Source of the DNA: a virus
Length of the DNA stretch: 64,000 nucleotides
IMG/VR virus record: IMGVR_UViG_3300036823_000117
Coordinates: 1-64,000 of that record
Direction: 5' to 3' (one strand)
Shown here: positions 5,641 to 53,318 of the stretch, in pieces
Numbering within the stretch: the stretch's first letter is position 1
Layout of the letters: each line of letters begins with the position of its first letter
Position numbers and translations under genes: made by a program
Notes under the pieces: generated by a model
Database searches by the model: none
What the model saw: only the letters and a program-made list of their open reading frames with translations
What the model was told of the DNA's origin: nothing

Positions 5641-6501
5641 TCACACGGCGTCCGCGAGTGCGGCTTGAGGGGTTTCGCGGGTCCGGCGGGTGCCGTTGCC
5701 GGCCCGCCACCAGTCCGGGAGCTTCCGGCCGCCGCGGCCAGCGTTGATCGTCTCCGTGGCGGCCGCGGCGACACAGGTCTTGAGGGGCTTGCCGAACTGC
5801 CGCTTCAGGCCGCGGGCCTTCTCCAGGAGCCCGTACGAGCCGCCGGGGGCGACCTGCAGGCCGGCGATGGCGCGGGCGTCGTCGAGGACGGTGCCGTAGC
5901 GCTGCATCATCAGGCCGACGCCGCCGATGACGTGGTGGTCGAGGCCGGCGTAGCCGTAGGAGTCCTTGACGATGACCAGGGTGCGGGCGAGGCATTCCTC
6001 GCCGGCCTTCCTGTAGATCTCCTCAAGGGTCCTGACGGCGGAGATCGCCCCGTCGGACTTGCTGTCCAGCCCGATGCGCATCCCGCAGCTGACGACGATG
6101 TCGTTGATCGCGCATTCCTGGACGCGCCCGGCGGTGACGGCGATCTTGAACTTCTGGTACGCGCCGACTCCGAGGCGGTCGTTGAGCTGGAGGAACAGGT
6201 CGCCTTCCTCAGGCTCCGTCAGGCCCTCGTATGCCTCGCATTCCAGCTGCATGTGGCCCATGCCGCGGATTTCCAGCGCCCGGACCCGGTGCTGGCCGTC
6301 CACGACCATCCACTTCTTGGCGCGGAGGTTCACGGTCGGGTGGCCGAGCTTGTCGGGATCCAGGTTCGCGGCGATCTTGTTGGCGTGCGCGGGGTTGTAG
6401 TCCCGCTGCGCGACCGGTGACACGGCCATGTCGGCGATGGGGATCCACCGCATAGCGGCCCTGCGGGTGATGCGCACGGCGGTATCCTCGAGTGTGGTCA
6501 C
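5641..6501 (-). CDS. DGQHR/ParB-like N-terminal domain protein (DUF6551-like)
   Basis: QRDYN...VVDGQHRVRAL...EEGDLFLQLN. Confidence 0.8.
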   Translation of the reverse strand: MTTLEDTAVRITRRAAMRWIPIADMAVSPVAQRDYNPAHANKIAANLDPDKLGHPTVNLRAKKWMVVDGQHRVRALEIRGMGHMQLECEAYEGLTEPEEGDLFLQLNDRLGVGAYQKFKIAVTAGRVQECAINDIVVSCGMRIGLDSKSDGAISAVRTLEEIYRKAGEECLARTLVIVKDSYGYAGLDHHVIGGVGLMMQRYGTVLDDARAIAGLQVAPGGSYGLLEKARGLKRQFGKPLKTCVAAAATETINAGRGGRKLPDWWRAGNGTRRTRETPQAALADAV

Positions 6502-10105: not shown

Positions 10106-10293
10106 GCCGGCTAGCGGACGTTATTTAGCCTCGCATCGGGAGCAGGCGGGCACATTCCGACAACGCATATCTCAGACCCGCTTGCACCGTCCGCAATGTC
10201 AGTTCACTGTGGGTAGATGGCGGCGCACACTCGGAAGTCGGACGTGCCGTGCCGCAAACACCCCTGACCCCCTCGCCGGAGGAGACAACAAGC

Positions 10294-11115
10294 ATGCCCA
10301 AAACCGACACGTACCCGGTACAGACCACCGGCACGTTAGTCCTCGTCCACATCTCGAAAATCCACCCGAACCAGCGGAACGTCCGCAGCGAGCTCGGCGA
10401 TCTCACCGACCTGGCCGCGTCGGTCAAGTCCCGGGGAGTCGAGGTCCCCCTTATCGCCTACCCGCACCCCGACGACGACGGCCACGTCATCCTCATCGAC
10501 GGGCACCGCCGCTGGGCCGCCGCGGGCATCGCGGGCCTTGAGGAAATCCCCGTCACGCTCCGGGCCGTCCCCGCCCGGGCCGAGGCGGTCAAGCTGATGC
10601 TCGTCACCGGCCTCCACGGCCAGGACCTGTCCCCCATGGACAAGGCCCGCGGGTTCGGTGAACTGGCGGACGCAGGGATGAACGGGCCGCAGATCGCGAA
10701 AGCGATCGGGCAGTCAACCGCGACGGTATCGACCTACCTGACGCTCCTCCATCTCGACGCCGCGTCCCAGAGACGCGTCGATCGCGGCGACGTCTCCGTT
10801 GCCGACGGGGTAGCCGCCGTCCGCGAAACCCGGGCGAAGGAGCGGAAGAGGACCGGGAAGTCCGACCAGCGGGAAACCATGGCCGCCACCTGGGAACCAG
10901 AGCACTTCACCTGGCAGCACCCCCTGGCCCGGAAAGCCGCGAGCTTCTGCGACGCCCGAAGGCACAACGCCCGCCGGCGACTCGGCGGCGCAGCGTGCGG
11001 GGTGTGCTTCGAGGACGCCATCCGGCAGGACGCCAAAGTTGTGCTCCTGACCGAGATGAACCAGCAGGCGGACGTCAAGTTCATGCCGCCGGCACCGCTC
11101 GCGCACACAGGCTGA
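10294..11115 (+). CDS. ParB/RepB/Spo0J family protein
   Basis: IHPNQRNVR, LIDGHRRWAAA, DLSPMDKA, HTH IAKAIGQSTATVS; GGAGG RBS. Confidence 0.88.
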   Translation: MPKTDTYPVQTTGTLVLVHISKIHPNQRNVRSELGDLTDLAASVKSRGVEVPLIAYPHPDDDGHVILIDGHRRWAAAGIAGLEEIPVTLRAVPARAEAVKLMLVTGLHGQDLSPMDKARGFGELADAGMNGPQIAKAIGQSTATVSTYLTLLHLDAASQRRVDRGDVSVADGVAAVRETRAKERKRTGKSDQRETMAATWEPEHFTWQHPLARKAASFCDARRHNARRRLGGAACGVCFEDAIRQDAKVVLLTEMNQQADVKFMPPAPLAHTG

Positions 11116-18433: not shown

Positions 18434-18573
18434 ACCCGGTCATCTCGCTGGTGATCTTCGCCATAATCGGCGTCGGCGTCGTGCTGCTGTTCCTCGGGTT
18501 CGAGCGCAATGACCCGGACACTGACTCCGGCCGCGACTTCCCCCGCGGCCGGCCATCTTCGGGCGGTGGCTGA
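18430..18573 (+). CDS. small membrane protein
   Basis: MNPVISLVIFAIIGVGVVLLFLGF. Confidence 0.55.
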   Translation: MNPVISLVIFAIIGVGVVLLFLGFERNDPDTDSGRDFPRGRPSSGGG

Positions 18574-19115
18574 TGCCCCCGCCATGCACCTGCCCGAGCA
18601 ACTCCGGCGGCAAGAAGCTCGCGGCCGGCGGCCTTGTTGTCGTCGCGCTGTTCGCTGCAGGCCACGCCAAGCCTGGCCACGCCGCCAAGCCCGCGGCCGC
18701 AGTTGTCGCTGATGCTGCCCGCCCGGCCGATAGTGACCGCGGCGCTGTAGCTGTCGCGTGGGCCCGCCGCCAGATCGGGGTCGCGTACCTGTGGGGCGGC
18801 ACCGGGCGGGGCGGCTTCGACTGCTCGGGACTGGTCTACGAGGCATGGCGGCACGCCGGGGTCAGCATTCCCCGGACCACGTTCAAGCAGTGGCCGGCAT
18901 TGCGTCACATCTCCCGAAGCCAACTCCGGCCGGGTGACCTGATCTTCTACGCCGGGTCGGACGGCACGCAGGCCAACCCGGGTCACGTCGTCATGTACAT
19001 CGGCGGCGGCTGGGTAATCCAGGCATTCGAGACCGGCACCAACGTGATGCTGACCCGGCTCGCCGACGTCAACGCCGGCCCGCTGACCGGCTACGCCCGG
19101 CCGGGGGGTGCGTAG
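18573..19115 (+). CDS. secreted NlpC/P60 peptidoglycan endopeptidase
   Basis: IGVAYLWGG...FDCSGLV...PGDLIFY...GHVVMYIG; N-terminal hydrophobic segment. Confidence 0.93.
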   Translation: MPPPCTCPSNSGGKKLAAGGLVVVALFAAGHAKPGHAAKPAAAVVADAARPADSDRGAVAVAWARRQIGVAYLWGGTGRGGFDCSGLVYEAWRHAGVSIPRTTFKQWPALRHISRSQLRPGDLIFYAGSDGTQANPGHVVMYIGGGWVIQAFETGTNVMLTRLADVNAGPLTGYARPGGA

Positions 19116-21818: not shown

Positions 21819-21971
21819 ATGCTGAAGAAAGTCATCACCTGGGGCATCGTCATCTTCGTCATCTACTACCTGGTGAGTAACCCGGGCGGCGCCGCCAACG
21901 TCGTTCATTCGGCGTTCGACGGCATGAAGACCGTCGGCCATTCCTTCTCCGGGTTCTGGACGAGCCTGTAA
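21819..21971 (+). CDS. small membrane protein
   Basis: MLKKVITWGIVIFVIYYLVSNPGGAANVVHSAFDG..; TAATG-coupled to FtsK. Confidence 0.65.
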   Translation: MLKKVITWGIVIFVIYYLVSNPGGAANVVHSAFDGMKTVGHSFSGFWTSL

Positions 21972-23938
21972 TGACCAGCCAGCCGGGAGGAGCCCGCCAC
22001 GCAGCCGCCGAGCACCGCGCCATCCTGGCGCCTGCCGGCTGGATGATCGCGGCGTGGATCTGTGCGAACGCGTTTACCCGCGCTCACGGCAACGACCCGG
22101 TTGAGCTGGCCGTGTTCGCTGATGCAGGCGTCGCGGTGTGGGCGTGGTTCGCCCGCATCCGCCACCTGCCCGCGGCGGCCATGACCGACAGCGGCCGGGA
22201 AGCCCGGCTGCGGCGGTACGCGTGGCGCTGCTATATCGCAGGCGCGATCTGGCTGGCCGCCGCATCCGCCGTGTTCGGCCCGACGTGGTGGATGGACCTT
22301 TTCCTGGTCATCGGCGGCCTGGTCCTCGCATCGCCGCACCTGTACCGCAACCAGATCGACCACTCCGAAGGCCCGAAGGTCATCGCCGGGGTCATCGCTC
22401 CCGCCGGGGAGCAGTCCGCGCCGCCACGCCAGCAGCCGGCCCGGTCGCAGGCACCCCAGCGGCCAGGCACCCCCCGGCAGTACGCCGCCCCGGGTACCAC
22501 GACCCTCCGGCCGGCCGCCAAGCCGCGGCCGCGGCCGACCGCCGACCCGGCCCGCGACGCCATCACCCGCGTGCTCCGCGAGTTCAAGATCGACGCGAAA
22601 GTCACCGGGTGCATCACCGGGCCCGCGGTCCTGCAGTACCAGATGACACCCGGTCCCGGCGTCAAGGTCGAGCGGATCACGCAGCTGACCGCGAACTTCG
22701 CCATGGCCCTCGGTCTCGGCAGATCGTCCGTGCGGATGATCGCCCCGGTGCCCGGCCGGTCCGTCATCGGGCTGGAAATCCCCCGCGCACCCGAGGACCG
22801 GCAGGTCGTCGCCCTCCGCGAAGTCCTTGAGTCCCCGGACATGCTCGCCGACCCCCACCCCCTGACCGTGCCCCTCGGCGTCGACAACGAGGGAAACGTC
22901 GTCACGCACGCCCTGCACAAGGGACCGCACACCCTGATGGCGGGTGCGACCGGCGCGGGCAAGTCGGTCAGCCTCAACGGCGTGATCGTGTCAATCCTGG
23001 TCCGCGCCACCCCGGCCCAGGTCCGGCTCCTGATGATCGACCCGAAGCGCGTCGAGCTCGCCGCTTACTCCGGCGTCCCGCACCTCCTCGGCCCGATCAT
23101 CACCAACCCTGTCGTGGCTGCCCAGCGTCTCGCCTGGGTGTGCGAGCAGATGGAAGCCCGCTACGACGCCATGGCCGCCGCCCACGTCAAGCACATCGAC
23201 GACTACAACAAGATCGACGGAGCCGACCCGTGGCCGTACTGGCTCGTCATCGTCGACGAGCTCGCCGACCTGATGATGGTCAGCAAGCAGAAGGTCAAGG
23301 ACATCGAGGTCCCCGACGTCGAGGACTGCATCGCCCGGATCAGCCAGCTCGCCCGGGCGTGCGGCATCCACCTCCTGCTCGCCACGCAGCGGCCCACCGT
23401 GGACGTCGTAACCGGCCTGATCAAGGCCAACGTCCCGTGCCGGATCGCGTTCGCCGTGGCCAGCCTTACTGACTCGCGGGTCATCCTCGACGCGCCTGGC
23501 GCTGAGCGGCTTAACGGGCAGGGCGACGGGCTGTTCCTCCCGATGGGCGCGAAGGACGCCATCCGCTTCCAGGGCGCCTTTGTCACCGAGGCCGAGATCA
23601 AGCAGGTCGTCGCCGAGTGCGTGGCCCAGGTAGCCCCGCCGTCTGCGCCAGTCCGCGGAAAGGTCATCCCCGCCGCGGTCGAGGCGCCCAGGCCTGAGCT
23701 TGACCCGGAACTGGTGCAGCAGGCCAGAGACCTCGTCGTCGCGACACAGTTCGGGTCGGTGGCGATGATCTCGCGGAAACTCCGCGTCGGCTTCGTCGAG
23801 GCCGGCGCCATCATGGCCGCCCTGGAACTTCAGGGGATCGTCGGGCCCGAGCCGGAAGACAGGTCGAAGGCCAGGGACGTCCTGGTCCGGCCGCAACCCA
23901 CGGAAGCGGCCCCGGCTGCGGAGGAAGAGGACCACTGA
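21971..23938 (+). CDS. FtsK/SpoIIIE DNA translocase (TM, alpha/beta motor, gamma wHTH)
   Basis: GATGAGKS, MIDPKRVEL, VIVDELADLMM, LATQRP, GAERLNGQGD, gamma SRKLRVGF..A. Confidence 0.95.
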   Translation: MTSQPGGARHAAAEHRAILAPAGWMIAAWICANAFTRAHGNDPVELAVFADAGVAVWAWFARIRHLPAAAMTDSGREARLRRYAWRCYIAGAIWLAAASAVFGPTWWMDLFLVIGGLVLASPHLYRNQIDHSEGPKVIAGVIAPAGEQSAPPRQQPARSQAPQRPGTPRQYAAPGTTTLRPAAKPRPRPTADPARDAITRVLREFKIDAKVTGCITGPAVLQYQMTPGPGVKVERITQLTANFAMALGLGRSSVRMIAPVPGRSVIGLEIPRAPEDRQVVALREVLESPDMLADPHPLTVPLGVDNEGNVVTHALHKGPHTLMAGATGAGKSVSLNGVIVSILVRATPAQVRLLMIDPKRVELAAYSGVPHLLGPIITNPVVAAQRLAWVCEQMEARYDAMAAAHVKHIDDYNKIDGADPWPYWLVIVDELADLMMVSKQKVKDIEVPDVEDCIARISQLARACGIHLLLATQRPTVDVVTGLIKANVPCRIAFAVASLTDSRVILDAPGAERLNGQGDGLFLPMGAKDAIRFQGAFVTEAEIKQVVAECVAQVAPPSAPVRGKVIPAAVEAPRPELDPELVQQARDLVVATQFGSVAMISRKLRVGFVEAGAIMAALELQGIVGPEPEDRSKARDVLVRPQPTEAAPAAEEEDH

Positions 23939-24198
23939 TGCCTAGGCCCAGGGAAACGATGCTTGGCCAGCCGATCCAGGTTCGCGCCGGACTCCAGGCC
24001 ACCTGCCGGACCTGCTCCTCGCGCGGCGTCAGGGGCGGCGGCCGCCTCGTCACCGACGGGACGGAGATCGCAGACGTCACCCAGGAGACCCGGTTCAACG
24101 GGCGGTTCACCGTCACCACCGGGCGTGCCGCTGTCTTGCTGGACTGCCCGGACTGCGGCAGCCCTGTCCAGTTCGCCGTACCCAATATCAAGATCTGA
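23938..24198 (+). CDS. small zinc-ribbon protein
   Basis: CRTC...CPDC. Confidence 0.6.
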   Translation: MPRPRETMLGQPIQVRAGLQATCRTCSSRGVRGGGRLVTDGTEIADVTQETRFNGRFTVTTGRAAVLLDCPDCGSPVQFAVPNIKI

Positions 24199-24209
24199 GA
24201 GGCAGCCTG

Positions 24210-24530
24210 ATGTCCCCCGTCCTCATCCTCGCCGCCATCGCCGCCGCCCTCGTGCTCGTGTACGTCATCTCGAAGGCCGACGCGTGGATGCCCGTCACGG
24301 TCCTGGGCCTCTCCGGCGCCGCCTGCTACTACGGGGTGTCGAGTTGGCTCAGGAAGACGCCGGCCGCGGCCAGGCCGCCCGCGCCGAAGATCGTGACCCA
24401 CGTCATCACCCACGTGGTCACCCGCCCGGGCAAGCCCACGCTGACCGGAGGCGAGATCACCCTGCTGCTCATCGTCGGCGGCGTCCTGGCCCTCGCTTAC
24501 CTGATCAACCGCACCCGCAGGAGCAGCTAG
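24210..24530 (+). CDS. three-TM membrane protein
   Basis: Hydrophobic segments. Confidence 0.7.
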   Translation: MSPVLILAAIAAALVLVYVISKADAWMPVTVLGLSGAACYYGVSSWLRKTPAAARPPAPKIVTHVITHVVTRPGKPTLTGGEITLLLIVGGVLALAYLINRTRRSS

Positions 24531-24532
24531 CC

Positions 24533-24967
24533 ATGGGCATCTTCGGAGCCAAGCGCGCCCGCTTCACCGACACCTACCAGACCTGGACGGCCTGCTTCGC
24601 CGAGCCGGTCGTGGCCCGGTCCTCCGACATGGAGGACGACGACCTCATCGTCGGCGCCCGCGCTTACGGCGCCCGGTTCGACTCACCGTCTGCGCCCGGC
24701 GCTGCGCTGAGCATCTGGGCGTACCCGGCGCCCGCCGGGCCCGGGACCCCGGACGGCACCATCGTCCTCGCCTACCGGGTCCACTACTCGGTCGGCTCAT
24801 GGGGGACCGCCCTGTACCACTGCGACGTCGCGTGCGGCGAGTGGTACGACAACCTCCCCGCCGCCGAGGCGGACGCCGTCAGATTCATCGCCGGACTCAT
24901 CAGTTCCGGTCCCCACACGGACCGGGTTCCGGACTTCTACACCGACTGGGATGGGCGGCGATTCTGA
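24533..24967 (+). CDS. hypothetical protein
   Basis: ORF with RBS. Confidence 0.6.
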   Translation: MGIFGAKRARFTDTYQTWTACFAEPVVARSSDMEDDDLIVGARAYGARFDSPSAPGAALSIWAYPAPAGPGTPDGTIVLAYRVHYSVGSWGTALYHCDVACGEWYDNLPAAEADAVRFIAGLISSGPHTDRVPDFYTDWDGRRF

Positions 24968-25070
24968 TGCCCCCCTCCCGGCCCGGAAGCCTCAAGGCGC
25001 GGATAGATCCGCCCGCGGATGGATCCGCGCCCGCGCGCGGGAACTACCACGACGAAAGCGGACGAGTCAA

Positions 25071-25226
25071 GTGAGCACTGACCTAATCGCCTTCCTCGCG
25101 TGGCTCACGGTCGTCGTCACGGTCGTCGTGATCTACCGCCGGTCCCACCGCAACTGGCCCCCTGACCCCAATCCGCCCCATCCGCAACAGAACCCCAGCG
25201 ACCCAGACGAAGAGGCGTCACCATGA
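25071..25226 (+). CDS. small membrane protein
   Basis: Single TM; coupled. Confidence 0.5.
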   Translation: MSTDLIAFLAWLTVVVTVVVIYRRSHRNWPPDPNPPHPQQNPSDPDEEASP

Positions 25227-26284
25227 CCGCCATGCTGCATGACATCCCGTGGGAGGTCCCCGCGTCGCTGGCCGGCGCTGCCCTGCTGCTGCACACCGCC
25301 CGGCGCGTGTTCCGCGCCATCCGCGACCGCCAGCCGGCCGGCTCACGGCACGGCCTGCGCACCGCCATCATCGCGCTCGGCGCGGCGCTGGCCCCCGTGT
25401 TCTTCACCGACATGTTCATGACCGTCGTCAACCTGCTCGGCCCGTCGTTCCACGGGTGGGCGTGGACGGTCCCCGCTGCGACAGAAGGCAGCTTCATCTT
25501 CCTGTACCTCCTCGACCTGTACCTCCTCGCCGAGGGCAAGCCGATGGGATGGCTCCGCTTCGCGCCGTACCCGTTCGCGCTCGCGTCGCTCGTGCTGAAC
25601 GTCTACAGCTCGTTCGGCGACGCACCGGGCATGCTCGGCCACGGCGTCGTCACTGTCGCGTTCTTCCTGCCGCTCCTGGCGGGCGAGGCGGCCGTCAAGT
25701 CGATGTCCGTCAGCGACAAGGAGGTCGCTCTGGCCGACGAGATGAAAGCGGCCCGCCAGTACGCCATTGACCTGGTACGCGACCAGCTGGGGTTCTTCTG
25801 GCGGCTCCGCCCGTCAGTCCCGACGCTGCTCCGCACCCGCATCGTCAGCGGCCGCCTCCCCGGCCATGTGGCCCGCGCGGTCCGCGACGGCGTAGCCGCC
25901 TGCGACGCGACAGTCTGGGAAGCCGCCGTCGAGAAAATGGTCACCGATGCGCTGACGCAGCGCGCCAAGATGGCCGCCGCTGTCGTGCGACAGGAACGCG
26001 ACATCCAGCAGACCGCCGATGCGACAACCGACACGACAACGGATGCGACAACCGGTGCGACACGGGATGCGACACCAGAGCGACAGGCCGCGCGACAGCC
26101 CAAGCGACAACTCACCGCCAGCGAGCGCGACAAGAACCGCGCGAAAGCCGCCCGCATTGTCGCGGCCGAGCCGGCCATCCGCGCTGAGGATCTGGCCGCC
26201 CGGTGCGGTGTCACGAAGCGGTCGGCTGAGAGGTGGAAGGCCGAGATGAGCCGCCCCAACCTCCAACTCGCCGAGAGCTCGTAA
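25223..26284 (+). CDS. DUF2637/Spd-like membrane protein with C-terminal HTH
   Basis: WAWTVPAATEG, SLVLNV, several TMs; C-terminal DLAARCGVTKRSAERWK. Confidence 0.7.
   Translation: MTAMLHDIPWEVPASLAGAALLLHTARRVFRAIRDRQPAGSRHGLRTAIIALGAALAPVFFTDMFMTVVNLLGPSFHGWAWTVPAATEGSFIFLYLLDLYLLAEGKPMGWLRFAPYPFALASLVLNVYSSFGDAPGMLGHGVVTVAFFLPLLAGEAAVKSMSVSDKEVALADEMKAARQYAIDLVRDQLGFFWRLRPSVPTLLRTRIVSGRLPGHVARAVRDGVAACDATVWEAAVEKMVTDALTQRAKMAAAVVRQERDIQQTADATTDTTTDATTGATRDATPERQAARQPKRQLTASERDKNRAKAARIVAAEPAIRAEDLAARCGVTKRSAERWKAEMSRPNLQLAESS
25988..26132 (+). repeat. phased CGACA direct-repeat array (clt/TRS-like)
   Basis: CGACA at 25988, 25999, 26022, 26034, 26046, 26058, 26070, 26081, 26093, 26105, 26128. 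Confidence 0.8.
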
Positions 26285-26381
26285 CCCGCCAATAGACGTC
26301 CCGGCGGCGCTAACGCAGGCGTCCCCCCCGCCTGGCCAGCGCCGCCGGGGCTCCAACCCGAACTGATCAAGGAGAAGCTCC

Positions 26382-26627
26382 ATGAGCAACTACGCAGCAC
26401 CCGGTGCCCGCGTCGGCCTCCAGGTTGACGGGAGCGTCACCATCACGGGCGGCCTCGTCATCGACATGAGCGACCCGAACTGGCCGGGCCGCGACGCTGG
26501 CGAGCCGGCCAGCGACGAAGACCGCGAGATGACCGCGGTTCAAGAAAGCCCCTTCAACGTCGCCGGCGGTAACGACGTCGTCGGCGTCCAGGCCGGCACC
26601 GTGACCCGAGACCTGGACGAGTCGTGA
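26382..26627 (+). CDS. hypothetical protein
   Basis: AAGGAG RBS; VGLQV/VGVQAG repeats. Confidence 0.6.
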   Translation: MSNYAAPGARVGLQVDGSVTITGGLVIDMSDPNWPGRDAGEPASDEDREMTAVQESPFNVAGGNDVVGVQAGTVTRDLDES

Positions 26628-27067
26628 GCACTGCATGGGACCGGTTCGCCGCGGACTGGCCCGAGTCGGCCGCGCTCGCGCAGCGGCAGTGGGACATCGC
26701 CCGCGGCCTGGAGCAGAACGAGATCCTCATCCTCGACGAGGAGTACCACTGTTCCGACGGCACCCCGGCCGTGATCGGGTTCATCGACACAGACCTGATC
26801 CTCGCCGTAGTCGCCGGCACCGCGGAGGAAGCGGGCGCCGGGATGCAGCCGGACCGGCTGGCGTATCTGCGGGCCGAGGCCTGCACCTGGGCTGACCGCA
26901 TCCGCGGCACCCGCGGCCTCCAGCCGGGAACAGTCCCGTATGACGTGCGGCGCCTCCTGCTCGGCGGTCGGCTCGACACCCTGCGGGTAGACGTCACCTA
27001 CAGCGACGCCGACCACCTGATGACCTGGCAGCGGAACGTCGGCGGCCTCGTCGGGCTCGCGTCATGA
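26624..27067 (+). CDS. hypothetical protein
   Basis: Coupled ORF. Confidence 0.6.
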   Translation: MSTAWDRFAADWPESAALAQRQWDIARGLEQNEILILDEEYHCSDGTPAVIGFIDTDLILAVVAGTAEEAGAGMQPDRLAYLRAEACTWADRIRGTRGLQPGTVPYDVRRLLLGGRLDTLRVDVTYSDADHLMTWQRNVGGLVGLAS

Positions 27068-27472: not shown

Positions 27473-27801
27473 TTGAGGACGAACGCGGCGCCTTCTATTC
27501 CTGGGAGTACCAGTTGGATACCGCACGCGTTCTCCGCTACACGGGTCTCCGCGACCAGATCCACCCCCTCGACGCCGTCGCCTGCACCTACGACGGCCGG
27601 GCCCACTTCGACGAGTCATCCCGCCGCGACCGCGAGATCCACGAGAACGCCGTCCACGGACCGTGGGTCACCGAGGCCGGCCTGGTCGCCATCATCGACT
27701 TGCGGCCCCAGCTGGAACGCATGGGATGCGCCCCCACAGACCCGGCGCTGCCCGACGACATCCCCCAGCGCTGGGAGCGCAACCCCCTGACCTACTCGTA
27801 A
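27469..27801 (+). CDS. hypothetical protein
   Basis: TTGA-coupled. Confidence 0.55.
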   Translation: MIEDERGAFYSWEYQLDTARVLRYTGLRDQIHPLDAVACTYDGRAHFDESSRRDREIHENAVHGPWVTEAGLVAIIDLRPQLERMGCAPTDPALPDDIPQRWERNPLTYS

Positions 27802-27875
27802 CACCCTGTAGTGTCCCGTCACGTTCCGTGTACCCTCTGCCTCACCTGCATCATCGTGGCGCGGAGGTGGTCAGC

Positions 27876-28736
27876 ATGAACAGCGACGGGCAGCGGCCCT
27901 GCGCCCGCGGGGTTTGGTGCGGGGCGGCCACCATCACGGTCGAGGACGGCCAGCGCGTCGTCACCCCCGCGTGGACATACCGCCCATTTTGCGAACCGTG
28001 TGAGCGGCACCTCGTCGGCCTCCTCGAAGGCATCCCCGACGACCCGGCCCGCAGCTTCGCGCAGCTCTACGGCCGGCTCGGCGCCGCGATCGGTGACCCG
28101 CAGCAAGCCGACGTCCACGTGCCCGCCCCGTTCGGACCGCAGACACCCATCCGCGAGGACATCGACGCCTGCATGCGGCTGACCGCCGTCACGCTCCGCG
28201 GCTGGGCGGCACGCACCAGGGCGGCCGCCCGCCTCACCGCGGCCCGCCACGCACCAGGCACCGCCGACGGAGTCGCCGAAGACGCCCGGGTGCTCGCGCT
28301 CAACATCACCGTCCTGCTGTCTCTCCAGCCCGGGTGGATGCGCCGCACCTACCGGACCCCCCTGTCCGACGAGCTGGCCGGCTGGCTCGCAGACGATGAG
28401 ATCATCAGCGTCTCCGACCACGACGTCACCGTCATGACCGAGGTTGACGGGGAAACCGCCGGCCAGGAATTGCTGCACCTGCACTACCTCGGCCGCAGGT
28501 GCTTGCTGGAGACCAACCCGCCGCCGGAGATATTGGTCATGCCGTGCCGGAAGTGCACCCACAGAGAGCTGCGCCGGGCTTACCCCGACGGAGAACGCGA
28601 CCTGTACTCCCGGTGCGCCCGGTGCAGCGACGAGATGACCGCACAGCAGTACGACGTGAACGCCCGCCGCTGGCGCGCGTACTACCAGGCCAAGCAGCGG
28701 AACCGTGCTGTTCTCGGGCCCGCAGTCGCAGCCTGA
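27876..28736 (+). CDS. zinc-binding protein, candidate late-gene regulator
   Basis: Multiple CxxC; immediately precedes a promoter plus terminator. Confidence 0.65.
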   Translation: MNSDGQRPCARGVWCGAATITVEDGQRVVTPAWTYRPFCEPCERHLVGLLEGIPDDPARSFAQLYGRLGAAIGDPQQADVHVPAPFGPQTPIREDIDACMRLTAVTLRGWAARTRAAARLTAARHAPGTADGVAEDARVLALNITVLLSLQPGWMRRTYRTPLSDELAGWLADDEIISVSDHDVTVMTEVDGETAGQELLHLHYLGRRCLLETNPPPEILVMPCRKCTHRELRRAYPDGERDLYSRCARCSDEMTAQQYDVNARRWRAYYQAKQRNRAVLGPAVAA

Positions 28737-52351: not shown

Positions 52352-52373
52352 CATGCCCCAGGAGGGCCAGTCG

Positions 52374-53318
52374 ATGCTCGACCGATTCCTGCCCGTGACG
52401 CCTGGCGCGCTCATCGGCTACCGCCGCAACGGCACACCGATCCGGCTCATCGCCGGCGGATCTGAGGCAGCCCCGGAGGCTCCTCCCGCACCGCCAGCCG
52501 ACCCGGCGCCGCAGCCACCCGACCCGACCGTGCAGCCGCCTGCCCAGCCGGCCGCCGCACCCGACCCCGCTGGCCAGCCGCCCGCAGACCCGGCCCAGCC
52601 GGCCGCTGAGAGCGTCGACCAGTTGCCCGCGTGGGCGCAGAAGACGATAGCCGAGACGCGCCGCGAGGCCGCCGCAGCCCGCACGAAGGCCAAGGAACTC
52701 GGCGACGCGCAGGCAACACGGGACACCCAGCACGCCGAGCAGATGGCCGGCATCGCCCGCGCCCTCGGCCTCGCCCCCGAGGAAACCACCCCCGAGCAGC
52801 TCACCGCCCAGCGCGACCAGGCCCGTGCCGACGCCGCAGCCAACGCCGCCAGCGCCCGCGCCACGCAGGTCGAGCTCGCCGTGTTCCGCGCCGCCCACCA
52901 GGCCGGCGTGAACGCCAGCGCCCTGCTCGACTCCCGCACCTTCGTCTCGACCCTCGACGGGCTGGACCCGTCATCCGAGGGGTTCGCCCAGGTCGTCGCC
53001 GACAAGATCGCCGCGGCCGTCGAGACGAACCCCGCATGGAAGGCGCAGGTCCCCGTCCCGGCAGTCCCGGCGACTGCCCCCGCGGCCCCGCCGCCCCTCG
53101 CACCGCCCGCCCCGGCGCCACCGGAGCAGGGCGTGCAGCCCCCCGCGGTCCCGGCATCCGGGCCGCAGGGCGGGTTCCCGTCACCGCCGCCTCCGGGCGG
53201 CAGGCAGCTCACTGCCGCGGACGCGCAGAACATGACAGCCCAGCAGGTCCAGGAGGCCATCAACGCGGGGCTGTTCATGGAGGCGGGCTTCGGCCCGGCG
53301 CGCTCGACGCGGCGCTAG
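52374..53318 (+). CDS. capsid scaffolding protein
   Basis: LPAWAQ.....RREAA..R; LLDSR.F; Pro-rich; precedes the capsid gene. Confidence 0.8.
   Translation: MLDRFLPVTPGALIGYRRNGTPIRLIAGGSEAAPEAPPAPPADPAPQPPDPTVQPPAQPAAAPDPAGQPPADPAQPAAESVDQLPAWAQKTIAETRREAAAARTKAKELGDAQATRDTQHAEQMAGIARALGLAPEETTPEQLTAQRDQARADAAANAASARATQVELAVFRAAHQAGVNASALLDSRTFVSTLDGLDPSSEGFAQVVADKIAAAVETNPAWKAQVPVPAVPATAPAAPPPLAPPAPAPPEQGVQPPAVPASGPQGGFPSPPPPGGRQLTAADAQNMTAQQVQEAINAGLFMEAGFGPARSTRR

Follow-up and report, generated by a model that had tools for sequence, protein, structure and literature searches.

A phased array of GCGACA words inside a phage membrane-protein gene, a candidate docking site for the phage genome

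The virus record IMGVR_UViG_3300036823_000117 of IMG/VR (118,586 bp), of which we analysed the first 64 kb (positions 1 to 64,000; hereafter, the window), represents, to judge by its genes, a temperate siphophage of the soil actinophage type. One of its plus-strand open reading frames (ORFs), at 25223..26284, encodes a 353-residue protein, P0001, which is DUF2637/SpdB-like by weak matches and which we modelled with AlphaFold2 (AF2). Inside this gene, motif search and Tandem Repeats Finder reveal a phased array of ten GCGACA words and two further CGACA copies (CCGACA at 26028 and ACGACA at 26033), spanning 25987..26132 on the plus strand. The array is very probably functional at the level of DNA: its pattern of conservation points to a cis-acting site, neither a peptide repeat nor a product of fresh replication slippage, and most likely to a protein-binding site carried in coding DNA. 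The binding itself, the binder and the purpose of a tether we infer from sequence comparison. We tentatively favour, at somewhat less than even confidence, a docking site for the phage genome that resembles the clt loci and is read by the helix-turn-helix (HTH) domain of P0001 itself.

A phased word within the gene of P0001

The array contains 12 plus-strand copies of CGACA, starting at 25988, 25999, 26022, 26029, 26034, 26046, 26058, 26070, 26081, 26093, 26105 and 26128 and thus spaced by 11, 23, 7, 5, 12, 12, 12, 11, 12, 12 and 23 bp. An initial annotation of this DNA had given the spacings correctly but counted 11 copies, missing the one at 26029. Ten of the 12 copies extend to GCGACA, and the lattice on which they fall has a period of 11–12 bp, with a mean step of around 11.7 bp when each 23-bp gap is taken as two steps. 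The spacers between words are variable (0.15–0.8 bit at most positions), with a purine at position −3. Tandem Repeats Finder describes the array as 8.1 copies of a 12-bp period with 72% matches and also detects a 24-bp unit duplicated 2.4 times at 84% identity. The GC content of the array is 66%, in a window of 69%. The words are read in three codon phases: as GCG-ACA (Ala-Thr; once as ACG-ACA), as G-CGA-CAR (Arg-Gln), and as cGC-GAC-A (Arg-Asp) together with acC-GAC-Acg. More than one phase had been recognised in the initial annotation, which put their number at two.

The array is the sole such cluster in the 118.6-kb genome. Every GCGACA-N5-6-GCGACA pair in the 118,586-bp record lies inside it (six forward, none in reverse and none for a reversed-pattern control), and the densest other 146-bp stretch in the window, on either strand, holds at most three CGACA or two GCGACA, compared with 12 and 10 in the array. 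Neither word is enriched over the whole window, with 196 CGACA against 180 ± 12 expected and 55 GCGACA against 66 ± 8 expected, and GCGACA shows no strand polarity or skew along the genome. Motif search also found isolated GCGACA copies upstream of the array in the same gene and on the same strand (25478..25483, 25713–25718 and 25907–25912); 13 of the 15 plus-strand GCGACA copies between 20 and 30 kb fall in the array-bearing gene.

In the AF2 model of P0001 (37 sequences; mean predicted local distance difference test (pLDDT) score of 80), a helical membrane domain extends to around residue 162, followed by a cytoplasmic helical domain (residues 165–273), a disordered segment (274–298) and a three-helix HTH bundle (299–343) whose helices, at 299–315, 321–328 and 332–343, reach pLDDT values of 93–96. 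The array encodes residues 256–304 and so runs from the end of a long helix through the whole disordered linker into the first turns of the HTH, such that its first two copies and its last copy map to confidently folded helices and not to the linker. The HTH-coding region (26117..26251, plus strand), placed by the AF2 model directly after the array and partly overlapping its last copy, is our candidate source of the array's reader.

The C-terminal domain of P0001 is homeodomain-like (HTH_23). Over the C-terminal 62–71 residues, the protein in the window matches this family below the cutoff (E = 6.9e-4), and its homolog at the locus designated L005 matches above it (4.2e-7, 30 bits). The Pfam match of the N-terminal part to DUF2637 (E = 1.7e-3, 18.7 bits) lies under the cutoff of 22.8 bits, PF10935 is assigned to four P0001 homologs in precomputed annotation, and Atlas neighbours include DUF2637, SpdB_N and HTH_23/24 (clusters combining SpdB_N with an HTH score 0.86–0.87), which we treat as leads only. 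P0001 matches no PHROG family and no NCBIfam family, with the weak DUF2637 hit its only one in Pfam; its fold has no match in the PDB at E ≤ 1e-3, and tblastn finds no match in phage records or, at E 1e-3, in plasmid records.

Conservation of the word as DNA

Three codon phases on one lattice, an excess of words over synonymous recodings and conservation among homologs together argue that the array is maintained at the DNA level. The initial annotation had proposed DNA-level rather than protein-level conservation, and both the recoding null and the homologs bear this out.

First, neutral slippage would be expected to leave the repeat in one codon phase, with decay spread evenly over the unit. 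The array instead has three phases, exact 6-bp cores and near-random spacers.

Second, the words are far more numerous than the peptide requires. When the P0001 peptide was kept and its codons were resampled from the usage of 20 other genes in the window, 200,000 trials gave a mean of 1.7 CGACA and a maximum of 7, against 12 observed, and a mean of 0.99 GCGACA and a maximum of 5, against 10 observed. The codons that spell the word include rare ones: CGA, 4.3% of Arg codons, is used in all four Arg-Gln copies, and Thr is written as ACA (6.8%).

Third, homologous genes keep a related word on the same lattice. P0001 has 36 relatives in a collection of 5.8 billion proteins, all of them metagenomic, and our comparison of homolog DNA covers 19 loci; viral contigs gave no hit when scanned with a single sequence, and of the four loci from an earlier profile scan, a second one recovered three. 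Homologs with 63–68% amino acid identity, whose synonymous sites are close to saturation, retain GCGNCA on this lattice. L005 (68% amino acid identity) carries 15 copies of GCGNCA, with spacings ending in 13, 12, 12, 12, 11, 12, 12, 23 and 12 bp; L006 has ten copies of GCG[AT]CA and L009 has six of GCGACA. The window, L005 and L006 even share an 11-bp step, GCGNCA-N5-GCGACAG, at which the word passes from the Ala-Thr to the Arg-Gln phase. Within the first 250 codons, at four-fold sites whose residue is shared, the window is identical to L005, L006, L009 and L007 at 61% (74 of 122), 49%, 52% and 42% of positions, respectively, and such low identity indicates that these lineages are old. Three array-gene homologs contain an in-frame stop, L008 (TAA), L013 (one stop) and L019/L145 (TAG), which could point to gene decay or to errors of assembly. 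L019, from a Streptosporangiaceae metagenome-assembled genome, is the only match in a bacterial genome collection.

Other loci carry other words on the same lattice, including 13 GGACA in L004 (nine of them CGGACA), eight CGTCA in L007 and five AGTCA in L013. The words of L004, L007, L009 and L013 each exceeded all of 20,000 synonymous recodings of their locus. In a test that presupposes no word, the self-match of linker 4-mers peaks at a lag of 12 or 24 in 12 of 15 loci and not at 9, 15, 18, 21, 27 or 30; the three exceptions are L001, with its peak at a lag of 23, L012 at 9 and L019 at 20.

The finer pattern of change also follows the DNA word and not the codon. In the GCG-NCA phase of the homologs, the base N that changes the amino acid varies (Thr, Pro or Ser), and the silent G and A are held, including the rare A-ending codon. 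Pairs of Ala with Thr, Pro or Ser are written as GCG-NCA in 13 of 22 cases in the linkers, compared with 6 of 25 upstream. Arg followed by Gln or His in the linkers is written as G-CGN in 19 of 20 pairs, and the Arg codons of these pairs are CGA (10), CGG (5), CGT (4) and CGC (1), compared with CGC (5) and CGG (2) upstream. The fourth base of the word drifts as a synonymous base in the Arg-Gln phase, as seen in L005, and drifts equally as a non-synonymous base in the Ala-Thr phase. The initial annotation had named a kept peptide with drifting synonymous positions as a pattern that would refute its reading; the outcome is mixed, as we find that pattern just at the fourth base, where the equal drift at non-synonymous positions favours DNA. 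It had also taken CGACA as the conserved unit, but the word conserved across lineages is GCGNCA. The fourth base of this word is lineage-specific, and this phage has narrowed it to GCGACA.

A closer relative, from a second soil metagenome study, is 96.6% identical over a 1274-nt contig (window positions 25164–26347), with 40 differences; its array contains no insertion or deletion. Of the listed differences, three (25996, 26067 and 26077) are in the array zone and all of these fall in spacers, in a comparison in which six of the contig's differences are unlisted and which has no statistical power; the listed differences lie mostly at third codon positions.

The opposite reading, which we consider decidedly improbable, holds that the array has no function as DNA and is a low-complexity disordered linker expanded by replication slippage, with selection acting on a peptide of four-residue periodicity and Arg-Gln repeats. 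Slippage has left its mark on copy number: a recent duplication of the 24-bp unit makes up part of the array in the window, and the number of units differs among the window, L005 and L006 (8, 7 and 6, respectively). In addition, the segment encoded by the middle of the array is disordered, the Arg-Gln peptide is conserved in L005 while its synonymous base drifts, and in L003, L015 and L016, which have a different C-terminal domain, the lattice stays in one phase (xxPE/xxPK) and could be a four-residue peptide repeat; L015, L016 and L017 are near-duplicates of one another. The duplication and the single-phase lattice also weigh against a docking site, as do three further points. The per-locus recoding nulls are optimistic, because the word was picked after inspection and codon usage was pooled. 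L019 carries the HTH and no array. Finally, 30 chromosomal DUF2637-like genes share the layout of P0001, a helical membrane domain followed by a C-terminal HTH, and have Pro-rich linkers without a comparable array; a profile of the membrane domain (A1) finds it in 77 of 401 searched genomes from the order to which L019's genome belongs.

Several features speak against slippage acting on a linker. Three phases are in use and the lags of 11 and 23 belong to the lattice; the cores are exact and the spacers near random; the Ala-Thr phase keeps its silent bases and frees its non-synonymous base; rare codons persist across lineages with 42–61% identity at four-fold sites; three lineages share the phase step; and the first two copies and the last sit in folded helices, outside the linker. 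Two further explanations were considered and rejected: pausing at rare codons, because the Arg-Gln copies of L005 use common codons yet retain the word, and a reading at the RNA level, as the fold z-score is −0.61 and there is no Rfam match near the array.

Candidate readers of the array

The word is kept as DNA rather than as protein, and a site at which the phage genome docks is therefore the likeliest reading of the array. In the mechanism that we favour, several copies of the C-terminal HTH of P0001 would bind the lattice side by side and thereby anchor the phage DNA at the membrane, next to the FtsK-like pump whose gene lies just upstream. Docked in this way, the DNA could be taken up or sorted by the pump, for instance for passage across hyphal cross-walls or septa or for segregation of phage genomes. 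Such a site would be clt-like in function but read by a membrane adaptor instead of by an FtsK gamma domain. As the HTH is encoded immediately after the array, site and binder would be inherited as one unit.

The pump is an FtsK-like DNA translocase of 655 residues (21971..23938, plus strand; identified with Pfam and NCBIfam) with a hydrophobic N terminus followed by alpha, motor and gamma domains, the last at residues 580–639 (Pfam E-values of 4.4e-21 for FtsK_alpha, 8.7e-51 for FtsK_SpoIIIE and 4.3e-13 for FtsK_gamma). In NCBIfam the FtsK models score best, and plasmid_TraB reaches 32.8 bits against a cutoff of 800; by these profiles the translocase is of the canonical FtsK type and not a member of the TraB family. 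Three small ORFs separate its stop codon from the array, which lies 2.05 kb further downstream inside another gene. The TraB-type setting suggested in the initial annotation is thus not supported, the translocase being canonical FtsK and the element a temperate siphophage.

The proposed tie between the array gene and an FtsK-like module, by contrast, is supported by the homologs. An ORF of 590–900 residues lies upstream of the array gene in the window and in all ten homolog loci with enough upstream DNA, in which the array gene follows it directly or after one ORF, and nine of these ten upstream ORFs show links to ATPases of the FtsK/HerA kind. Pfam and all-against-all BLAST divide the upstream ORFs into at least four mutually unrelated groups: canonical FtsK in the window and L009 (47% identity); a group of L004 and L010, with a gamma domain in L004; a group of L002, L007 and L012, with weak FtsK/HerA matches; and a group of L003, L011 and L019, with weak P-loop or FtsK matches. 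In L001, the 612-residue upstream ORF is unclassified and a coupling-protein-like gene lies further up. This gene (L001:196-2097) encodes a type IV coupling-protein-like ATPase (TraG-D_C, T4SS-DNA_transf) on a contig classed as viral, which suggests that some family members perhaps sit on conjugative elements rather than phages.

The gene has thus kept its 12-bp lattice while the ATPase has been exchanged between unrelated types, at least four in number. The L009 ortholog of the window's FtsK (L009:3272-5524, 47% identity) ends around 30 residues past the motor, and we found no gamma-like sequence in any frame of the 7.5-kb L009 locus, in which six GCGACA copies are kept. It is this persistence of the array beside a gamma-less FtsK, together with the change of ATPase type around a constant gene and lattice, that leads us to favour P0001's own HTH, which is at least as good a candidate reader as the FtsK gamma domain.

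The initial annotation had instead proposed a recognition site for that gamma domain, a claim that these two observations weaken. In its broader form, this reading takes the array to be a TraB/clt-type loading site read by the translocase, through FtsK gamma in this phage and through the C-terminal winged helix of TraB-like ATPases in its relatives; we regard it as unlikely. An FtsK with a gamma domain is indeed encoded 2 kb upstream, and all ATPase types but that of L009 end in a gamma domain or in a winged-helix-like segment, G-[VR]-[IV]-x-[KR]...G-x-Y. Published clt loci, in the excerpted text of two papers, are arrays of 5–9-bp direct repeats bound by the C terminus of TraB (PMC4447253, PMC3583192). 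Besides the lack of gamma in L009, however, the gamma domains of the window and L004 are 54% identical in ATPases with otherwise unrelated bodies, and their words differ by one inserted base. The array remains within the membrane-protein gene although the ATPase has been replaced at least four times, GCGACA lacks the genome-wide strand polarity expected of a gamma-guided motif, and the plasmid_TraB score is far under the NCBIfam cutoff.

Three observations also weigh against the HTH as reader. The HTH helix (GVSKRTAERWK) is identical in L005 and L006, which differ in their use of the fourth base. L002 and L007 share their ATPase type (69% identity) and differ in the C-terminal domain of the membrane protein, yet their words, GC[GT]CAC and CGTCAR, are alike, which fits an ATPase reader as well. 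In addition, SpdB2 is described in excerpts of one study as binding DNA non-specifically (PMC4447253). A complex prediction for FtsK residues 1–290 with P0001 scored 0.00 in a run made without controls and counts neither way.

The main functional rival to a docking site is a replication origin or organising site, in which the words would be iterons in their binder's own gene, as in the lambda origin, and the membrane protein would tether replicating phage DNA to the membrane, in the manner of p16.7 of phage phi29. A scan of viral contigs for three GCGACA copies at 11–12 bp returned at least 119 stretches. Seven of the eight array-bearing ORFs of unrelated phages that we tested are O-like or DnaD-like initiators, with the array just after the sequence for the DNA-binding domain. 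These arrays (L061, L073, L078, L106 (also L111 and L114), L115, L120 and L144) contain five to eight GCGACA copies at 11–12 bp in the linker-coding part of the gene, and they are probably in-gene origins; the phages that carry them are unrelated and mostly of lower GC content. L078 also encodes an FtsK homolog around 4 kb away on the same strand. As examples of a site array written into the linker of its presumed binder, these genes are a precedent for the architecture and speak for the HTH of P0001 as reader. An origin reading likewise gains from these arrays, as well as from the homeodomain-like C-terminal domain of P0001 and from the lack of a recognisable initiator, polymerase, primase or helicase in the scanned ORFs of the 118-kb genome. 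We nevertheless judge it distinctly unlikely for the array in P0001. The protein matches no PHROG and no initiator family; there is no AT-rich stretch within around 600 bp, the lowest GC content of any 40-bp segment in 25400–26800 being 50%, at the ribosome-binding site of the next gene; GC skew does not turn near 26 kb, its cumulative minimum lying near 92 kb; and the constant partner of the gene is a DNA pump, not a replication gene.

Alternatively, the HTH might bind its own coding sequence as an operator or roadblock that controls this gene and those downstream, with no docking role. The site and its binder do share one gene, and a perfect 12-nt GC-rich inverted repeat (26300–26311 and 26338–26349) lies just past its stop codon; this repeat, which has a 26-nt loop but lacks a T run, is perhaps a terminator or perhaps a further protein site. 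Autoregulation of this kind is very improbable in our assessment, as 10–15 phased sites go far beyond the needs of an operator, no promoter-like site was found in 24500–27000 and a membrane anchor would be unusual in a pure regulator.

An extension of the favoured docking-site reading, fairly unlikely but worth stating, is that the FtsK pump, the SpdB-like adaptor and the adaptor's own equivalent of clt form a conjugation-like device by which the phage spreads its DNA without virions. The HTH-bound lattice would dock the genome at hyphal cross-walls, and the pump would move naked DNA between compartments or into neighbouring hyphae. With similar reserve, we suggest that the cassette of site and adaptor could be portable and recruit unrelated pumps of the FtsK/HerA type.

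Genomic setting, known systems and significance

The array gene lies in a plus-strand block that also encodes the complete FtsK (alpha, motor and gamma) and, near the head of the block, a protein with an NlpC/P60 peptidoglycan hydrolase domain (18573..19115, plus strand; Pfam NLPC_P60, 1.1e-22; PHROG tail/lysin families). Downstream of the array gene, a Cys-rich, zinc-ribbon-like protein of 357 residues (27663..28736, plus strand; true start probably near residue 75) matches phrog_1568, 'DNA binding protein', at 6.2e-7. It is conserved downstream of the array gene in L001, L003, L007 and L011 by tblastn synteny, with invariant Cys columns in the alignment. It has no match in Pfam, NCBIfam, the PDB (by sequence) or phage records; its AF2 model is poor (pLDDT 46.6), and Atlas gave just unnamed viral clusters. 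When the DNA of 21900–26400 is compared with phage records, matches are limited to the FtsK motor (62 records, 60–80% identity). The nearest named relative of the FtsK-like gene is in the cluster J mycobacteriophage Thibault, which has no comparable gene after its own FtsK-like gene.

The structural genes of the siphophage (terminase, SPP1-type portal, capsid and tail tube) lie at 43–60 kb, and further along the record are genes for the tail protein Dit, an amidase, a serine recombinase and a tyrosine integrase. A packaging (pac) site is an unlikely explanation of the array, which lies 17 kb from the terminase gene and accompanies its own gene in loci with no phage structural genes seen in the flanks examined. 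Two ParB-like genes, at 5641–6501 (minus strand; DUF6551/phrog_1033) and 10249–11115 (plus strand; ParB_N and HTH_ParB), coexist with the two integrase-type recombinases in this phage; no parS-like repeats were seen adjoining the second. A ParB centromere was rejected for the array: the parB genes are 15–20 kb away, the word is not palindromic and there is nothing comparable beside parB. Elsewhere in the window, tandem repeats at 52491–52604 (periods of 21–42, 72–81% matches) encode a Pro-rich segment of a gene at 52353–53318, upstream of the capsid gene. Beyond it, the minus strand of the record encodes a Ro60/TROVE-domain protein (81167–82888), a Mom-like DNA modification protein (111444–112115) and a D12-class adenine methyltransferase (111980–112813).

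Among known cis sites, the array is a variant of the clt loci and of in-gene iterons. The likeness to published clt loci, which the initial annotation had pointed out, is upheld by the excerpted text of two papers, in which clt loci are arrays of direct repeats (PMC4447253, PMC3583192), with nine 9-bp repeats in pJV1, four 7-bp repeats in pWTY27 and three 5-bp repeats in pIJ101 (PMC3583192). As in those loci, short repeats of one orientation are clustered here (12 CGACA, 10 of them GCGACA, within 146 bp), 2.05 kb from the gene of a pump of the FtsK family that acts on double-stranded DNA and together with a membrane protein that weakly resembles SpdB, and the clt of pWTY27, as described in the excerpted text, likewise reaches into coding sequence. 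Unlike the clt loci, the array belongs to a temperate tailed phage rather than a plasmid or an actinomycete integrative and conjugative element; its neighbouring pump is a canonical FtsK with alpha, motor and gamma domains, not TraB; it has a 6-bp core on a strict lattice of around 12 bp, in 10–15 copies; it lies wholly inside a membrane-protein gene, not in or after the pump gene; and it is kept at a locus, L009, whose FtsK ortholog lacks gamma. It is probably not a strict member of the TraB/clt family, nor a target of the gamma domain.

SpdB2 offers a parallel for P0001. In the excerpted text of PMC4447253, it is a four-helix membrane protein that binds double-stranded DNA, interacts with TraB and has homologues on actinophages. 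By that description, the SpdB2 of pSVH1 resembles P0001 as an integral membrane protein of around four helices, and it binds double-stranded DNA and works with an FtsK-like pump. Unlike P0001 as we read it, SpdB2 is reported there to bind DNA without specificity and no cognate site for it is described in those excerpts; P0001 also has no sequence match in plasmid records (tblastn, E 1e-3).

The in-gene iterons are similar in form. The iterons of the phage lambda origin sit within gene O, which encodes their binder. In the O-like and DnaD-like ORFs described above, as in P0001, direct repeats phased at 11–12 bp occupy DNA that encodes an interdomain linker of the putative binder, and the encoded peptides are alike (Ala-Thr, Arg-Gln and Arg-Asp) because the GCGACA word is the same. 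P0001 differs from these proteins in being a membrane protein with its DNA-binding domain at the C terminus and not the N terminus, in having no similarity to O or DnaD and in lacking an adjoining AT-rich region.

Two further systems share single features with the array. The motifs that guide the FtsK gamma domain, the FtsK-orienting polar sequences (KOPS) and SpoIIIE recognition sequences (SRS), are polar 8-bp words dispersed over the whole replicon with strand skew. GCGACA resembles them as a short oriented word in a phage whose FtsK has a gamma domain, but it is clustered at one place and unskewed elsewhere. Like P0001, protein p16.7 of phage phi29 is a membrane protein whose C terminus forms a homeodomain-like DNA-binding domain, and it serves to attach the phage DNA to the membrane. 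It differs in having one membrane helix and in binding DNA regardless of sequence, and we know of no dedicated site array or FtsK partner for it.

FtsK-like genes are common in actinophages, and in excerpts from phage papers, PMC4447253 among them, their role is just conjectured. No description of an array of this kind was found in the portions of the full-text literature on DUF2637 and on FtsK-like and SpdB2 phage genes that our search returned. A defined candidate site of 146 bp beside an FtsK-like gene makes the role of FtsK in actinophages experimentally approachable. Further, a word that is kept across codon phases, with its silent bases held and a coding base left free, offers a clean route to binding sites buried in genes, and the same search approach revealed the origin-like arrays in initiator genes of several unrelated phages. 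If the HTH of P0001 does read the array, the phage would possess a sequence-specific tether of its genome to the membrane, and site and adaptor would form a portable combination for interchangeable pumps.

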